A DNA stretch of 64,000 nt from Candidatus Levybacteria bacterium RIFCSPHIGHO2_01_FULL_40_16 (GTDB taxonomy: Bacteria; Patescibacteriota; Microgenomatia; Levybacterales; UBA12049), in the NCBI GenBank assembly GCA_001783805.1, contig MFNS01000007.1, forward strand, positions 1,594 to 65,593, read 5' to 3'. A program made the position numbers and the translations under genes. Positions 5,568-43,583 of this stretch are shown piece by piece. Below the pieces are notes generated by a model. It made no database searches, had not been told where the DNA came from, and saw nothing but the letters and a program-made list of their open reading frames with translations. The first letter of the stretch is position 1, and the number at the start of each line of letters is the position of its first letter.

Positions 5568-5640
5568 AAAAAACGCACAAGGCGTACCACCTTTACTTCG
5601 TTTTCGTATAGAGTAATAAATTTATACCACATCCTCCCGC
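5568..5640 (-). promoter_or_regulatory. rpoBC promoter (TTGACA-17-TATAAA) with a ~70-nt leader
   Basis: Minus strand reads cTTGACAtgggcgggaggatgtggTATAAAtttatt... then ~70 nt to the rpoB ATG. This is one of the few long leaders in the window. Confidence 0.5.
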
Positions 5641-5716
5641 CCATGTCAAGCCCCCAAAAAAAGATTTTTCCTGAGGCTTAACCCCAGGGGTCGCCGCACG
5701 AAAATTTTTATGTTCA

Positions 5717-6171: not shown

Positions 6172-8145
6172 ATGACAGCGAAGGAAATTATTGAAAAATA
6201 TATTGCGTTTTTTGAGAAACGCGGGCACAAAAGAATTGAGAATGCTCCTCTGGTCCCGCAGAATGACCCAACTACCCTTTTCACCTCATCCGGTATGCAG
6301 CCTTTGGTCCCCTATCTTTTGGGAAAAGCTCACCCAATGGGAAAAAAATTGGTAAATGTTCAGAATTGCTTCAGAGCTGTGGACATAGATGAGGTCGGAG
6401 ACAATCGCCACACAACATTCTTTAGAATGCTGGGAAATTGGAGTTTAGGTGATCCTGCCCGCAATGCTCCGCAAAGCGATGCAGGCGGGTACTTTAAGAA
6501 AGAACACCTCCCTTGGATTTGGGAATTTGTCACTAAAGATTTAAAAATACCAATCAGTAAACTTTATATAACAGTTTTTAAAGGATACAGGGATATTCCA
6601 AAAGATGCCGAATCAGAAAAAATCTGGACTGATATTCTTACAAAAGAAGGATTGGATCCCAAAGAAAGAATATTTTTTTACGACACGCAAAACTGGTGGT
6701 CCCGCACCGGAGAACCGGATAAAATGCCTGTGGGTGAACCGGGCGGACCGGACTCGGAAATCTTCTTCGATTTCGAAACACCCCATACTACAGAGTATGG
6801 AAGGAAATGTCATCCAAATTGTCAATGCGGTCGTTTTATGGAAATTGTTAACAGCGTGTTCATGGAATACCAAAAGCAAGAAGATGGCAGTTTTAAAAAA
6901 CTTCCTCAACAAAACGTTGACCATGGTGCTGGCGTGGAAAGACTTCTGTCTGCAGTTGAAAACCAACAGGATATTTTTCAAACTTCTCTTTTTAAACCAA
7001 TCGTTAACGCAATTGAACAGATATTAAAAAGTGATTATAAAATAAATAGTCGAGCAATCAGAATTATAACGGATCACTTAATAGCTTCTACTTTTATTGC
7101 AGCAAATGGAATTATTCCTTCAAACAAAGAACAAGGATATATCCTGCGGAGGCTTTTAAGAAGGGCAATTCGATATGGGAAACAATTAGGAGTTGACAAA
7201 ATATTTACTTCTGATATTGCTTCTGTAATTATCAAAAATTATTCAGATACAGATTCTGATCTTACCGAAAAAGAAAAACTCATCAAAGATTTATTCAACG
7301 AAGAAGAAAAAAAGTTTGCTCAAGTTATCCAAGAGGGACTTAGGAGATCGGAAAAGATATTTGAAATAAAAACCCCAATTAAAACAGGCTTATATTCAAA
7401 ACTAATGCAAATTTCCGACAAAAAAGAACTGTTTAGAAATATTTACCGTAATAAAATTCCAAAGAATATTTTAATACCCATAGGGGAAATTAAACTGGCA
7501 ACTATAAGCGGGGAAGAGGCGTTTAATTTATATCAGTCTTTCGGCTTCCCGATAGAAATGATCATTGAGCTTGTTCAGGAAAAAGGTTTATTAGTTGATA
7601 TAGAAGCATTTGAAAAAGAAATAGAAAAGCATCAGAAAATTTCTAAGGTTGGGGCGGAGAAAAAGTTTAAGGGTGGGTTGGCGGACACCTCGGAAAAGAC
7701 TATCATGGGGCATACGGCAACGCATTTACTACATAAAGCCTTAAGAGATCTCCTTGGCGAAAATGTTCATCAGACCGGCTCAAACATTACTTCCGAGCGA
7801 ATCCGCTTTGATTTTAATTATGATAAAAACCTTGCTCCTGAACAAATCAAGAAGATTGAGGAAGTAGTTAAGGAAAAAATCCGTGAGAATCTCCCTGTCC
7901 ATTTTGAAATGCTTTCCTTAGCAAAAGCGAAAGAAATTGGCGCAATCGGACTTTTCGATGAAAAATATGGACAAACTGTCAAGGTTTACTTTGTTGGACC
8001 AAAGACCAAAGACCAAAGACCATATTCTATCGAATTTTGCGGAGGCCCGCATGTCGCGTTTACTTCAGAGATAAAAAGTTTTAGAATAATTAAGCAGGAA
8101 AATATCGGCAAAGGAAACCGTAGAATTTACGCTAAAGTTGGTTAA
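6172..8145 (+). CDS. alaS: alanyl-tRNA synthetase, short form (catalytic + editing domains, no C-Ala domain), carrying a 36-nt in-frame element
   Basis: NDPTTLFTSSGMQP and GNWSLGD[PARNAPQSDAGG]YFKKE match the AlaS class II motifs, here interrupted. The editing-domain HTATHLLHKAL and CGGPHV zinc motifs are present. The protein is 657 aa versus ~870 typical. Confidence 0.9.
   Translation: MTAKEIIEKYIAFFEKRGHKRIENAPLVPQNDPTTLFTSSGMQPLVPYLLGKAHPMGKKLVNVQNCFRAVDIDEVGDNRHTTFFRMLGNWSLGDPARNAPQSDAGGYFKKEHLPWIWEFVTKDLKIPISKLYITVFKGYRDIPKDAESEKIWTDILTKEGLDPKERIFFYDTQNWWSRTGEPDKMPVGEPGGPDSEIFFDFETPHTTEYGRKCHPNCQCGRFMEIVNSVFMEYQKQEDGSFKKLPQQNVDHGAGVERLLSAVENQQDIFQTSLFKPIVNAIEQILKSDYKINSRAIRIITDHLIASTFIAANGIIPSNKEQGYILRRLLRRAIRYGKQLGVDKIFTSDIASVIIKNYSDTDSDLTEKEKLIKDLFNEEEKKFAQVIQEGLRRSEKIFEIKTPIKTGLYSKLMQISDKKELFRNIYRNKIPKNILIPIGEIKLATISGEEAFNLYQSFGFPIEMIIELVQEKGLLVDIEAFEKEIEKHQKISKVGAEKKFKGGLADTSEKTIMGHTATHLLHKALRDLLGENVHQTGSNITSERIRFDFNYDKNLAPEQIKKIEEVVKEKIRENLPVHFEMLSLAKAKEIGAIGLFDEKYGQTVKVYFVGPKTKDQRPYSIEFCGGPHVAFTSEIKSFRIIKQENIGKGNRRIYAKVG
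6454..6489 (+). repeat. 36-nt GC-rich hairpin element inserted in frame, copy 1, inside alaS
   Basis: cctgcccgcaatgctccgcaaagcgatgcaggcggg. It splits the conserved GNWSLGD|YFK motif and is 33/36 identical to the metG copy. It folds as a 13-bp imperfect hairpin. Confidence 0.8.
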
Positions 8146-8148
8146 GCT

Positions 8149-10452
8149 ATGAATCTGCCATTTTTTAGTAGATTTAACAAGAAAGTTCTACCTTTATATT
8201 ATTTAGTTCTGATCCTAAGAGACGAAAAGGCTCGGGCAGTAATCTTTGAAGAGCTCGAAGGCAGAGTAAAAATCATCGGGCAAAAAGAAGAACATTTTTC
8301 TGTTTCTATAGATGCCGTCTCTCAGGAAGAACTTTTGGAAAAATTAGATAAAGCAATTTCGGGAGCCGAATCAACGCTTCCTGAAAATATACAAACGCAA
8401 AAAACAATTTTTGGAGTTAAGGAATCCTGGACAGACAATGATCAGATAAAAAAGGAATATCTCGCAAAACTCAAAAAGGTAAGTTCGGAATTGGGATTAG
8501 TCCCGATTGGTTTTTTGGTAATAGCGCAGGCAATTTCACATTTATTGCAAAAGGAGGAAGGAGCGCCTGTTTCCGCAATCCTTACGGAAATTAACAAGAA
8601 AAGTGTAACAGTAACACTTTTGCGAGCGGGAAAAAGTATAGAAACAAGAAGCTCCGAGATTCACGATTCTATTCCCTTTACCGTTGACACCCTCTTAAAA
8701 CATTTTAATATTCCGGAAATTCTACCATCCAGAATTATAATCTTTAACGGAAAAGAAGATTTAAGTCAGGAATTTATTTCCCACGCCTGGAGCAAAAGTT
8801 TGCCTTTTCTTCATCTTCCCCAAATATACTCTCTGCCTACTGGATTCGATGCGAAAGCAGTCCTTTTTGGCGCAGCCACACAAATGGGATTTGAAGTTAT
8901 GGAGAAAGATATACCAGCAACCACTGAAACACAGAACGAAACAGAAACGCAGAATTTCAGTGCCTTAGAGAAACTCAGTGATTCAGCGGTTGCAAGAGAA
9001 AAAAATCTCATCGAAGAGCCAATACTTTACAAAAATTTAGGAGCTTCAGATTTTGGATTTGCTAAAGATGTAGATGTCGCGAAGATGGAGTTTCAAGAAG
9101 AACAACCTACCCGTAATGTCCACCAGGACGATGCAGGCGGGAAAGTAATTCCTCAGATTGACGAAGAAGAATATGCAATACCCAATCCGCCTAAAAAACC
9201 CGACAATATCTTAACCTTAGCAATAAATACCCTAGCTGCGATTTTAGGCTTAATATTTACAATTGCTGAGAAAATAAATATTAAAAAAATCTTATCTTTT
9301 GCTACTTCGGGAAAATTAATAACCGTGGTTCCGGCAATTTTAATTTTGATTGTTGCGCTGATCGTTAGCTACTTCCTATTTCTAAAAGCAACGCTTGAGA
9401 TAACTGTAGATCCAAAGATTCTTGAGCAGAATAAAAGCGTGCTATTCTCGACAACTAAGCCGACCGATCCTAGCCAAAATATTATCAAAGGAGAGTTTAT
9501 AACAACATCCGAAGATGGCTCTGTCTCAACTCCTGCTACCGGAAAAAAGGATGTTGGCACTCCCGCGAAAGGAACAGTCATAATTTACAATGATAGTGAT
9601 ACCGCCAGAACCTTAGCTGAAGGGACAATATTAAAAGCTCCCAATGGACTTGAATTTACGCTTGATTCGTCAACTACTATAAAAGCGGTTGCATCTCACT
9701 CGGCAAATGAAAATCCCCCTCCTGAAAAAACTACAGCGAACGTAACCGCTGATCAACTGGGCAAAGAATCCAATCTTCCTTCAGGTACAAAATTTTCTGT
9801 AGCATCTCTTAATACATCTGAAATAATAGCAATAAATGATAATCCTTTTTCCGGCGGAACAAAAAAAGAAGTGACCGTAGTTTCAAAAAGTGACTCAACT
9901 AAATTAGAGGGGGATCTTCTTAAGCAATTAGAAAATAACGCCAGAAAAGATCTTCAAGAACAAGTTGGGCAAGATAAAATTTTACTTTCTGCTTTTATTT
10001 CGGAGACTTTAAGCAGTAAATCCTTGAATGTAAAAATTGGAGACGAGGTAAATCAAGTAACCTTAACCGGAACAGTTGAGTATCAGGGGCTTTCGTACGA
10101 CAAAAACGACATGATAACATTTGGCAAATTTCTTCTTTCCAAAGATATCCCCCTTGATCAGGAAATTGATTTTAATAATATTAAAGCATCTGTTCTTGAT
10201 ATAAAAAATAAAAATGATGAAGAAACAGAAGCAAGTCTGAGTATCAAAGCGCTCTTGCTACCAAAAATTGATGAAAATAAATTAACAAAAGATTTAAAAG
10301 GAAAACCTTTTAAAACTGCCGAAGATGTACTTTATAAATTGCCTCAAGTTGCAAATGTAAAGATCAAGCTTTCTCCTAATCTCCCATTGCTGCCAAAGAA
10401 CTTACCGGCAAGAGAAAAAAATATAAAAGTTTTAATTAAAATAAATGGGTAA
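8149..10452 (+). CDS. large hypothetical membrane protein (767 aa) with a central TM segment. The N-terminal ~250 aa are loosely FtsA/PilM-like. It contains copy 2 of the in-frame 36-nt element.
   Basis: ORF with a hydrophobic stretch ILTLAINTLAAILGLIFTIAEK...VVPAILILIVALIVSYFLFL. The insert encodes PTRNVHQDDAGG. Confidence 0.5.
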   Translation: MNLPFFSRFNKKVLPLYYLVLILRDEKARAVIFEELEGRVKIIGQKEEHFSVSIDAVSQEELLEKLDKAISGAESTLPENIQTQKTIFGVKESWTDNDQIKKEYLAKLKKVSSELGLVPIGFLVIAQAISHLLQKEEGAPVSAILTEINKKSVTVTLLRAGKSIETRSSEIHDSIPFTVDTLLKHFNIPEILPSRIIIFNGKEDLSQEFISHAWSKSLPFLHLPQIYSLPTGFDAKAVLFGAATQMGFEVMEKDIPATTETQNETETQNFSALEKLSDSAVAREKNLIEEPILYKNLGASDFGFAKDVDVAKMEFQEEQPTRNVHQDDAGGKVIPQIDEEEYAIPNPPKKPDNILTLAINTLAAILGLIFTIAEKINIKKILSFATSGKLITVVPAILILIVALIVSYFLFLKATLEITVDPKILEQNKSVLFSTTKPTDPSQNIIKGEFITTSEDGSVSTPATGKKDVGTPAKGTVIIYNDSDTARTLAEGTILKAPNGLEFTLDSSTTIKAVASHSANENPPPEKTTANVTADQLGKESNLPSGTKFSVASLNTSEIIAINDNPFSGGTKKEVTVVSKSDSTKLEGDLLKQLENNARKDLQEQVGQDKILLSAFISETLSSKSLNVKIGDEVNQVTLTGTVEYQGLSYDKNDMITFGKFLLSKDIPLDQEIDFNNIKASVLDIKNKNDEETEASLSIKALLLPKIDENKLTKDLKGKPFKTAEDVLYKLPQVANVKIKLSPNLPLLPKNLPAREKNIKVLIKING
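9106..9141 (+). repeat. 36-nt in-frame hairpin element, copy 2 (diverged)
   Basis: cctacccgtaatgtccaccaggacgatgcaggcggg. It has the same ends (cct..c and cgatgcaggcggg) and the same length as the alaS and metG copies. Confidence 0.6.
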
Positions 10453-42107: not shown

Positions 42108-43583
42108 ATGAGCAAGTTTTATATTACAACCGCTATTGATTACGTTAACGACACTATTCATCTGGGGCATGCTTTTCAAAAGATTGCCGCTGATGTTTTG
42201 GCGCGCTATCACAGGATTACGCTTGGAAAAGACAATGTTTTTTTCCTAACCGGAACCGACGAATATGGACAAAAGGCTGAAAAAGCGGCCAAATTGGAAA
42301 ATATTCCTCCAAAAGAATTTGTCAAAAAGATCTCCGATTCCGACCAAAAAGAACAAGACTCTCTGAATATTTCTTACAATCGATTTATTAGAACAACCGA
42401 TCTAGACCACGCAGAAGTTGTTAAAGAAATTTGGAATAGGGTGCAAAAAAACGGTGATGTCTATTCCGGAGAATATCAAGGCTCATATTGCGAAGGTTGC
42501 GAAGCTTATTATGTAAAAGAGGATTTGATCAAGGGAAAATGTCCCGTCCATCCAACGCTGGAAATAAAAATAGTTAAAGAGCAAAATTATTTTTTCAAAT
42601 GGTCCAAATATAAAGATTTTCTGATCGATCACATCAAGAAAAATCCTGATTTTATTTACCCCGCCCACCGCGCGAAGGAAATGCTCGAATTTGCCAAAAA
42701 TATCAAAGACATTCCTATTTCCCGGAGTAATTTTACCTGGGGAATTCCCGTTCCTGCCCGCAATGCTTCGCATAGCGATGCAGGCGAGCCCGAAGATTCG
42801 AAACAGATAATTTATGTTTGGTTTGACGCTTTGGTTAATTATTTAACTGGAGTTGGATTTTTGAAAGACAAGGAATTATTTGCTAAATTTTGGCCGGCTG
42901 ACGTGCATATTTTGGGCAAAGATAATTTACGCTGGCACGCTCTTCTCTGGCCGGCAATGCTCAAATCCGCAGGCATTGAATTACCAAAAGCCATTTTGGT
43001 AAATGGATTTTTGAATATCAACGGACAAAAAATCAGTAAATCTGTTGGGAATGTTATCCGTCCGACAGATTGGGTAAAAAAATACGGAGCGGATGCTGTC
43101 CGCTATTATCTTTTGAGATACACCAATCTCACCGATGATAGCGATATTTCCGAAGAAAAATTATTGCAAGCTTACAACGCCGATTTAGCAAATGGTCTAG
43201 GAAATCTCGTCGCCCGCGTTGCCAAACTCTGCGAAAATAATAATCTCAATTTGACTAAACTTAAACAAGATAGGCCTAATCAAATATTGGAGGAGATAAA
43301 ACCCTTGCTCGAAGGTTTTAAATTAAACGATGCCCTAAGCTATGTATGGGGATCTATAAAAGGTTTAGACCAATATATAAACAGAGAAAGACCTTGGCAA
43401 AAAGAATTAATAGAAGCGAATAAAATCCTTAGTAATATTGTGATTGGCTCTGAGGCGTTAACCTCATTAAATGAAATTGCGGAAGCGCTTAAAATATTTC
43501 TTCCCGAAACTGCGGAGAAAATTGAAGGACAATTCTGCGGACCAAAAATTATTTCCGGAAAACCCCTCTTCCCGAGAATCTAG
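42108..43583 (+). CDS. metG: methionyl-tRNA synthetase (short form) carrying the 36-nt in-frame element
   Basis: HLGH (HIGH) and KISKS (KMSKS) class I motifs; WGIPVP[ARNASHSDAGEPE]DSKQIIYVWFDAL, where the canonical sequence is WG.PVPGD..K.IYVW.DA. Confidence 0.9.
   Translation: MSKFYITTAIDYVNDTIHLGHAFQKIAADVLARYHRITLGKDNVFFLTGTDEYGQKAEKAAKLENIPPKEFVKKISDSDQKEQDSLNISYNRFIRTTDLDHAEVVKEIWNRVQKNGDVYSGEYQGSYCEGCEAYYVKEDLIKGKCPVHPTLEIKIVKEQNYFFKWSKYKDFLIDHIKKNPDFIYPAHRAKEMLEFAKNIKDIPISRSNFTWGIPVPARNASHSDAGEPEDSKQIIYVWFDALVNYLTGVGFLKDKELFAKFWPADVHILGKDNLRWHALLWPAMLKSAGIELPKAILVNGFLNINGQKISKSVGNVIRPTDWVKKYGADAVRYYLLRYTNLTDDSDISEEKLLQAYNADLANGLGNLVARVAKLCENNNLNLTKLKQDRPNQILEEIKPLLEGFKLNDALSYVWGSIKGLDQYINRERPWQKELIEANKILSNIVIGSEALTSLNEIAEALKIFLPETAEKIEGQFCGPKIISGKPLFPRI
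42753..42788 (+). repeat. 36-nt in-frame hairpin element, copy 3, inside metG
   Basis: cctgcccgcaatgcttcgcatagcgatgcaggcgag; 33/36 identical to the alaS copy. Confidence 0.8.

Follow-up and report, generated by a model that had tools for sequence, protein, structure and literature searches.

A 36-nucleotide (nt), GC-rich hairpin, here called E, occurs three times in the window analyzed in this study, a stretch of 64 kb (64,000 nt) from Candidatus Levybacteria bacterium RIFCSPHIGHO2_01_FULL_40_16 (contig MFNS01000007.1), where it lies in frame within the aminoacyl-tRNA synthetase genes alaS and metG and within the gene for a 767-residue protein without annotation. Our reading, to which we give a probability of about 0.7, is that E is a mobile hairpin that has spread horizontally and has been filtered by selection to loops that tolerate it. 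The element would be nonautonomous, given that it cannot encode anything. None of the rival explanations that we weighed matches this reading on the pattern of presence and absence and the frame bias together.

All three copies are on the + strand, within + strand open reading frames (ORFs), and are read in the identical frame. Copy 1 (CCTGCCCGCAATGCTCCGCAAAGCGATGCAGGCGGG; 6454..6489, +; two differences from the family consensus) is located in alaS (6172..8145, +; 657 aa; Pfam tRNA-synt_2c, 6e-112, and tRNA_SAD) and encodes PARNAPQSDAGG between GNWSLGD and YFKKE of the alanyl-tRNA synthetase (AlaRS), splitting the GNWSLGD/YFK motif (a slash marks the insertion point here and below). Copy 2 (CCTGCCCGCAATGCTTCGCATAGCGATGCAGGCGAG; 42753..42788, +; one difference) is located in metG (42108..43583, +; 491 aa; Pfam tRNA-synt_1g, 5e-98) and encodes PARNASHSDAGE between WGIPV and PEDSKQ of a methionyl-tRNA synthetase (MetRS) that is 100% identical to that of Candidatus Levybacteria bacterium RIFCSPLOWO2_01_FULL_39_24. 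Copy 3 (9106..9141, +) encodes PTRNVHQDDAGG within a linker of the 767-aa protein that is low in complexity and poorly conserved; the gene for this protein (8149..10452, +) is syntenic, downstream of alaS, in relatives. The initial annotation had placed 36-mers at these positions, with 33/36 identity between the alaS and metG copies and an in-frame peptide of the PARNAxxSDAGG type; rereading of the sequence, recomputation of the identity and the three translations bear this out. The pairwise identities among the three copies are 33/36, 27/36, and 25/36, the value of 27/36 being that of the diverged copy 3 against copy 1. Pattern searches of the window, allowing up to three mismatches or specifying the arms alone, returned exactly these three copies, against 0.00 expected by chance from 100 dinucleotide shuffles of the window. 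A covariance model scored the alaS, metG, and third copies at 62.1, 60.5, and 44.9 bits (E values of 1.6e-11 to 1e-7, the last for copy 3) and detected no fourth copy in the window.

E is an insertion relative to close orthologues at all three sites. Of the 120 best AlaRS homologues, 109 have the contiguous motif GNWSLGDYFK, among them the three nearest (73-77% identical); the MetRS site, between WGIPV and P(N/E)D, is empty in the closest relative (85% identical). Copy 3 is absent from four syntenic orthologues (L120-L123). The same holds beyond the window species, in that the nearest relatives of every insert-bearing AlaRS or MetRS, up to 92-95% identical, have an empty site. At the DNA level, GGAGAT/TATTTT in the alaS of L120 (75% identical) corresponds to GGTGAT-E-TACTTT in the window, which is a gain of exactly 36 nt without a target-site duplication (TSD); likewise, CCTGTT/CCCAAT in the empty metG of L124 (85% identical) corresponds to CCCGTT-E-CCCGAA, again with no TSD. 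Every full-length strain variant of the window AlaRS and MetRS (90% clusters) retains its insert, on 14 and 24 contigs, respectively, from NCBI, JGI, ENA, and Logan, so both inserts are fixed in the species. A metagenome scan for an empty-site alaS allele of this species, made with a junction-spanning 28-mer, matched only an unrelated AT-rich alaS. Two outcomes that the initial annotation had named as fatal to its proposal, an ancient feature shared by all relatives and an assembly artifact, thus find no support. An assembly, adapter, or chimera artifact could be suspected from the identical sequence in many metagenome-assembled genomes (MAGs) of different projects, but this explanation is effectively refuted by the 14-24 independent contigs of the window species, by the in-frame, sense, and frame-0 bias of the copies described below, by diverged copies with compensatory changes, and by the absence of E from phage and plasmid collections. 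In addition, the record names indicate short-read, Microflora Danica (MFD, including a complete 4.18-Mb chromosome), and single-cell (SAG) assemblies.

The family extends far beyond the window. A scan of GTDB, with one genome per species and only the arms specified (24 of 36 bases fixed and 12 free), found E in at least 118 genome stretches; the matches listed hold 121 copies, 119 of them with full flanks, and it is to these sets that the following counts refer. The consensus is CCTGCCCGCAATGCTTCGCATAGCGATGCAGGCGGG, with 60 of the copies listed identical to it, and the 12 bases that the pattern did not fix are near-invariant too, with variation mostly in the loop. In the 119 copies with full flanks, information content drops to about zero as soon as position 1 or 36 is passed, which sets the length of the unit at exactly 36 nt. 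By record title, 77 of the loci listed belong to the Candidate Phyla Radiation (CPR; Microgenomates, Parcubacteria, Saccharibacteria, Berkelbacteria, and others), 22 to the Planctomycetes-Verrucomicrobia-Chlamydiae (PVC) group (Verrucomicrobiota, Kiritimatiellia, and Lentisphaerae), 9 to "Gammaproteobacteria" of low GC content and doubtful label, and 1 to "Bdellovibrionales," while 9 have no taxon name in the title. The ten contigs titled as uncultured Gammaproteobacteria or Bdellovibrionales MAGs (L001, L011, L018, L032, L041, L055, L080, L110, L111, and L117) have 31-46% GC, and the few contexts inspected are housekeeping ones (tRNA clusters, a ValRS-type synthetase, and S16) that look CPR-like; these contigs may be taxonomically mislabeled. 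Closed or near-closed carriers on the CPR side are a 1.02-Mb Microgenomates genome (JBAQFJ010000001.1) and a 776-kb Levybacteria contig. Among the PVC loci are contigs of 0.5-1.9 Mb and the complete Verrucomicrobiae chromosome OY969715.1 (4.18 Mb), and they come from genomes of 55-63% GC, within an overall range of 31% to 63% GC for E loci. One such host is the PurL protein of a 60%-GC Lentisphaerae MAG, where a clean 12-residue insert (…SPFYAGE-PARNASPSDAGG-LPAGLMHPRR…) is absent from 49 of the 49 homologues with a locatable site, including those 75-86% identical. The recent spread of a tiny mobile palindrome, proposed from the window copies alone, is therefore supported and extended to a near-invariant family in CPR- and PVC-labeled genomes. 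E had no match in a reference phage collection, just five partial chance-level matches (E values of 1 to 4) in a plasmid collection, and no match at an E value of ≤10 among the Rfam 15 covariance models; among 2.9 million viral contigs of IMG/VR, a single one carried E, in an intergenic position. Searches with DNA strings, peptide strings, and keywords retrieved no description of E, with most subscription journals lying outside their coverage.

The way in which E sits in its host genes is strongly biased. Of 121 copies, 80 are within long ORFs, 72 of them in sense and 8 in antisense orientation (p = 5e-14), and 69 are read in frame 0, though five of the six frames are free of stops; the frame that contains TAG is avoided. 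The frame-0 peptide, PARNASHSDAGG, is hydrophilic, with a grand average of hydropathy (GRAVY) of -1.11, compared to +1.06 for LPAMLRIAMQA, +0.58 for PACIAMRSIAGR, and +0.32 for PPASLCEALRA, the hydrophobic peptides of three of the four other open frames. Host genes number more than 70 and are unrelated, with GrpE (at the N terminus), SecA, TrpRS, ValRS, EF-P, ribosomal protein S9, and the C-terminal tails of TraG-like proteins recurring, and intergenic copies exist as well. Within the host ORF, 32 of 60 copies fall in the first or last 15%, and the residues that flank the insert are enriched 1.6-fold in lysine and glutamate. We propose that insertion of E is roughly unselective and that selection would then clear all but the tolerable copies. 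Such a filter would explain why coding copies are nearly always in sense frame 0, which yields a stop-free, hydrophilic, Pro/Gly-capped 12-mer, and why they reside in the tails of proteins, in linkers rich in K and E, and in a small number of permissive loops. The orientation of noncoding copies also follows that of neighboring genes, with a weaker bias (roughly 29 to 8), so a strand preference of the mechanism itself may act on top of the peptide filter.

These same biases bear on whether the 36 nt are translated at all. Removal at the RNA level, as a mini-intron, or ribosome bypass of the kind seen with the yeast mitochondrial "byp" hairpins would fit a stable hairpin inside a universally contiguous AlaRS motif and copies in tRNA-derived fragments. 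Under either mechanism, however, orientation, frame, and stops should not matter, yet 69 of 85 coding copies are read in the one frame that is hydrophilic and free of stops, and copies avoid the frame with TAG; furthermore, no intact tRNA is interrupted by E, and to our knowledge no removal or bypass machinery of this kind exists in bacteria. We consider this explanation very unlikely, and in the window genome the most probable fate of the alaS and metG inserts is translation, as additional loops on the protein surface. An AlphaFold2 (AF2) model of MetRS (mean predicted local distance difference test score [pLDDT] of 87.7; predicted TM score [pTM] of 0.89) agrees with the proposal of a tolerant surface loop, given that the insert is the sole low-confidence coil of its region (residues 220-226 below 50), with confident structure on either side. 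The AlaRS insertion point aligns to D101/Y102 of Aquifex aeolicus AlaRS (PDB 1RIQ), and the AF2 model of the window protein has low confidence throughout region 23-105. The predicted tryptic peptides that span the inserts are NAPQSDAGGYFK for AlaRS and NASHSDAGEPEDSK for MetRS. The window AlaRS is short (657 aa) and has a further, lineage-specific insert, KELFRNIYRNKIPKNIL, of ~17-30 aa at window positions 7420-7470 (residues ~417-433), which is AT-rich, unrelated to E, and common to 24 of the other 119 homologues.

The fold of each window copy is a hairpin of 13 bp that contains two 1x1 internal loops, with minimum free energies of -18.3, -14.8, and -13.8 kcal/mol and z-scores of -2.8 to -2.1 relative to shuffled sequences. 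The imperfect 13-bp hairpin of the initial annotation was thus borne out by folding, except that the pairing given there omits two terminal pairs. Several variants preserve the stem or improve it. In copy 3, compensatory changes (C14-G23 to U-A and U15-A22 to C-G) maintain the pairing of the upper stem; in a subfamily, E2 (…GCTACGCATAGCGTTGC…, peptide PARNATHSVAGG), the A11/A26 mismatch has become an A11-T26 pair; and the copy of L059 has a perfect stem. Changes on both sides were found at three stem pairs, a number reached by 0 of 500 shuffles, and the near uniformity of the family keeps formal covariation modest. The sense strand folds slightly better than the antisense strand as a result of G.U wobbles (-19.0 versus -17.8 kcal/mol for E and -23.5 versus -19.5 for E2). 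Diverged, decaying copies coexist with near-perfect ones: in the 751 kb around the listed copies, the covariance model detected approximately 10 further copies, scoring from 55 down to 25 bits, and some degraded copies have indels or are out of frame.

We considered that E could instead be a functional nucleic-acid module under purifying selection, such as a protein-bound or translation-modulating hairpin, whose mobility is incidental or ancient. The near-invariance of all 36 nt across phyla, the preserved or improved stems, the better fold of the sense strand, and the strong sense bias are each in line with such a function, as are the lack of synonymous change within E at a shared alaS site and the tandem units upstream of tRNA genes, where transcription is possible (both described below). 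Against it, the closest relatives of every carrier are without E, which means that no host gene needs it; the host genes are functionally unrelated, and copies are also intergenic and inside another mobile repeat; degraded copies persist; an Rfam match is absent; and the copy number per genome is apparently low. We regard a functional module as unlikely, while holding it to be the strongest of the rivals to a mobile hairpin.

E recurs at the same codon boundaries in distant relatives. It occupies the identical GD/YFK position of AlaRS in the window, in Levybacterium L123, and in Gottesmanbacterium L071, whose AlaRS is 49% identical. Among codons for the same amino acid at this shared site, 47-57% differ in the flanks and 0 of 10 differ within E (Fisher p = 0.0009-0.009), so the E segments at this site are not old orthologous coding sequence. 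Spread of E among orthologous genes by DNA uptake and homologous recombination, without transposition, would account for the shared alaS position in Levybacteria and Gottesmanbacteria, and the flanks of the insertion sites are highly conserved motifs. Two AlaRS variants, P0004 and P0372, carry the rare E variant of the window followed by a Y-to-D change, with P0372 also having an R-to-L change inside the insert; P0004 is identical to the window near the insert, yet 81% identical overall, which points to recombination, chimeric assembly, or errors in the reads. Recombination between orthologues nevertheless seems quite improbable as the general route, given that the flanks differ synonymously right up to the element boundary and that it leaves unexplained the arrival of E in more than 70 unrelated genes and in PVC genomes of 55-63% GC.

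Repeated insertion followed by selection, as the mobile-hairpin reading has it, would lead to the same AlaRS and MetRS positions being hit again and again by E and by related hairpins. The GD/YFK site holds an insert in 11 of 120 AlaRS homologues, 4 of the E type and 7 consisting of other hairpins, which encode PASPDERTSRGG, PASPARLDSAKRDGGQGG, PASPKTSSRGG, and peptides like them. The MetRS site is filled in 10 of 120 homologues, by E, PASPQGG, PAFAKASAGK, or PASPASGVASPQGG. At the DNA level, these sibling hairpins are 21-54 nt long and have the same feet as E (CCYGCC…GGCGGG). One sibling, S, of 36 nt (CC[CA]GCCTCGCCCGACGAG…CGAGTCGAGGCGGG), shares the outer feet of E, encodes PASPDER(T/A)SRGG, and is itself dispersed, being found in the alaS of L121 (10283-10318) and in a GAPDH-like gene of L089; on the - strand of L089, S lies 9 nt downstream of an E copy (- strand positions 5620-5655). 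Other fixed positions of AlaRS (P0020, P0038-P0071, P0107, and others) and MetRS (P0128, P0171, and P0178) hold further peptide inserts that look GC-rich from the protein (GLPATPSQASGLRGGR, GLPAGRQ, SASAKATDG, DSSRGE, and QALPAGR), and in-frame hairpin inserts therefore seem to be general in Levybacteria-type genomes.

Among the noncoding copies, five are situated in the D-arm/D-loop region of truncated tRNA 5' fragments, directly upstream of an intact tRNA gene (L019:3640-3960; L078:3130-3390; L109:355-510; L110:790-945, - strand; and L041:35-110). The unit consists of tRNA nt 1-11/15, E, the next ~10 nt, and the upstream spacer, followed by the intact tRNA; it is single or present as two identical tandem copies (periods of 120 and 89 nt), and three of the five E copies are inserted at TAGC/T. 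No intact tRNA interrupted by E was found, and deletion of E in silico yields no new tRNA, which places these copies in truncated fragments. The units may be expressed as E-RNAs, may be what survived lethal hits on tRNA genes, or may hold a clue to the target; promoter scans of the units gave weak signals that we did not use as evidence. In the Verrucomicrobia MAG KR13_Ju.mb.40, E is nested in a ~165-nt repeat resembling a MITE (miniature inverted-repeat transposable element), with terminal inverted repeats (TIRs) GAGTCAGTTTCAAAAGTCC, in at least three places (L008:1-260; L014:1150-1400; and L029:1780-2030), so another small element has taken E with it. Some copies are abutted at both ends by imperfect 14-16-nt direct repeats or lie within short tandem repeats (L119:5040-5160; L080:1985-2060; and the E copies at - strand 3931-3966 of L012 and - strand 7861-7896 of L087). 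Flanking direct repeats of at least 9 nt accompany 7.5% of E copies compared to 1.3% of control positions, with varying geometry, and it is unclear whether they represent an occasional long TSD or a preference for slippage-prone DNA.

Some of these features could point to a stray CRISPR-type repeat or to the product of a Cas1/casposase-like integrase, given the 36-nt length with a hairpin, the few noncoding copies with imperfect direct repeats, and the copies that adjoin tRNA genes; casposons have a known TSD length and tRNA targets. Such an origin is highly improbable. An array is absent from all of the at least 118 loci: 116 of the 118 listed have a single exact match, and the two doublets have identical, tRNA-derived "spacers." Moreover, the empty and filled pairs show no duplication, and direct repeats of ≥9 nt are found beside just 7.5% of the copies.

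We next turn to how a bare hairpin might move. E would be copied or moved in trans by an enzyme encoded outside the element and would pass horizontally among bacteria that share groundwater, freshwater, and soil habitats. The mover may recognize a folded single strand, as the HUH/Y1 "peel-and-paste" enzymes of the IS200/IS605 and RAYT (REP-associated tyrosine transposase) kind do, where REP denotes repetitive extragenic palindromic sequences. A mover of this type would bring with it the seamless gain and apparently seamless loss, the conserved mismatches and wobbles in the stem, and a preference for transcribed or structured DNA. HUH/Y1 enzymes insert and excise seamlessly, leaving no duplications, and act on imperfect hairpins; we regard a hairpin-recognizing activity of this kind as the most economical candidate and put it forward tentatively, at odds well below even. 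It is also possible, and we rate this as a speculative proposal, that E and its CCYGCC...GGCGGG siblings constitute a new class of minimal element, a single hairpin of 21-54 nt that is seamlessly inserted and removed by a mechanism outside the known rules (no DDE duplication, no IS200/IS605 target, and no REP head). Such a class might have spread between Patescibacteria and Verrucomicrobiota, perhaps via imported single-stranded DNA (ssDNA), and might be continually remodeling surface loops of essential enzymes in ultra-small bacteria.

Several points count against a mobile hairpin, and some of them also against the HUH candidate. The fixed 4-5-nt target of IS200/IS605 is absent, with flanks of the 119 copies holding at most 0.26 bits per position and no consensus target, and so are the GTAG/CGTC head, the doublets (REPINs), and the extragenic habit of REPs. 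No mobilizing gene was detected in the window or in the 8-kb blocks around the 119 copies. Recurrence at the same codon boundary needs either a very high insertion flux together with strong selection or a targeting rule that went undetected. The near-identity across phyla is partly inflated, in that 24 of the 36 positions were set by the search pattern itself. In addition, tolerance of the insert by the AlaRS fold is presumed, the AF2 model being of low confidence in region 23-105, and synthesis of the inserted peptide is deduced from sequence.

Candidates for the mover were sought among the neighbors of E. All-versus-all clustering of 1,471 ORFs from the 119 loci returned housekeeping families and one Cys-rich family. 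The Cys-rich proteins (~570 aa, no Pfam match) are encoded in tandem arrays of two or three genes (L115:1-7229; L081:3349-7997; L075:5023-7997; and L016:4884-7063) beside genes for TraG/TrwB-like coupling proteins, which carry E in their C-terminal tails. Two loci with oppositely oriented E copies enclose EF-P/toxin-antitoxin-like and SecDF-type genes and not a transposase. A reverse transcriptase gene (RVT_1, 4e-19; L124:1-824, - strand) is found ~2 kb upstream of the empty metG of L124; it is probably unrelated to E, and the window has HrcA-GrpE-DnaK-DnaJ at that place.

Should this reading be confirmed, few known mobile elements would be as small as E, which would also be a rare case of one that is nearly unchanged across unrelated phyla, and it would serve as a test case for how a bare hairpin can be moved. 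Specialists in mobile DNA and CPR genomics would be surprised by a near-invariant 36-nt element in both CPR- and PVC-labeled genomes, its presence inside a universally contiguous AlaRS motif, its repeated gain and loss at the same codon boundaries, and the lack of a known mover. E also offers a natural test of where in essential proteins (AlaRS, MetRS, SecA, EF-P, PurL, and others) a loop can accommodate 12 additional residues. That CPR and PVC genomes share it is a hint that episymbionts exchange DNA with possible hosts or neighbors. In practical terms, the presence or absence of E provides markers for the tracking of strains and lineages in CPR metagenomes, and given that E and other GC-rich peptide inserts inflate apparent protein divergence, we advise masking them in alignments.

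E shares features with several known systems and coincides with none of them. REPs are imperfect, GC-rich palindromes of 20-40 nt with conserved stem imperfections, for which an ssDNA hairpin is the presumed substrate (PMC3733652, PMC3116915), and they have a GTAG or CGTC tetranucleotide at one end (PMC3733652). E likewise is an imperfect palindrome in this size range (36 nt, 13 bp, two 1x1 loops), but its first four bases are CCTG and its last four CGGG, the reverse complement begins with CCCG, and no tetranucleotide is conserved in its flanks. REPs are extragenic, form inverted doublets, are species specific, and flank a RAYT gene, none of which was observed for E: 80 of 121 copies lie within long ORFs, a covariance-model search of the first 100 of the at least 118 loci found no closely spaced inverted pairs, and neither the 8-kb blocks nor the 64-kb window revealed a recurrent transposase-like neighbor. 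Elements of the IS200/IS605 family have hairpin ends, no DDE-type TIRs, and no target duplication, and they excise seamlessly. The seamless junctions of E in alaS and metG, without a TSD, resemble theirs; unlike E, which is a single hairpin with no target motif, these elements require a fixed 4-5-nt target at the left end and separate left and right hairpins. DDE-type MITEs, with TIRs and a fixed short TSD, also differ from E, which shows no duplication at the documented sites.

The GC-rich clusters of yeast mitochondria, including byp elements, are short mobile hairpins in AT-rich coding genes; byp elements are not multiples of three, contain stops, and are bypassed by the ribosome, whereas the length of E is a multiple of three and one open frame is used. 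Closest to E in size and behavior are the small dispersed repeats (SDRs) of heterocystous cyanobacteria, which belong to another phylum and have other sequences. Elhai et al. reportedly described them in 2008 in Genome Research as imperfect palindromes of 21-27 nt with insertions like those of mobile elements, and they are reportedly common to several genera and nested in other repeats, without a known mobilizing enzyme; SDRs are not known to lie systematically in frame in essential genes or to have passed from one phylum to another. The Rickettsia palindromic elements (RPEs), to which the initial annotation had likened E, are ~150 bp long, comprise ten families, and are confined to Rickettsia; the peptide they add is thought to be compatible with the protein fold, and no transposase is known for them (PMC10969869). 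The likeness holds in that both are palindromes in frame in unrelated housekeeping genes, as tested here for E, and fails as to membership, given that E is 36 nt, four times smaller, sharp-ended, near-invariant, and found in CPR- and PVC-labeled genomes. E is thus outside the RPE family on grounds of size and host range, and its likeness to RPEs is one of function and not of homology.

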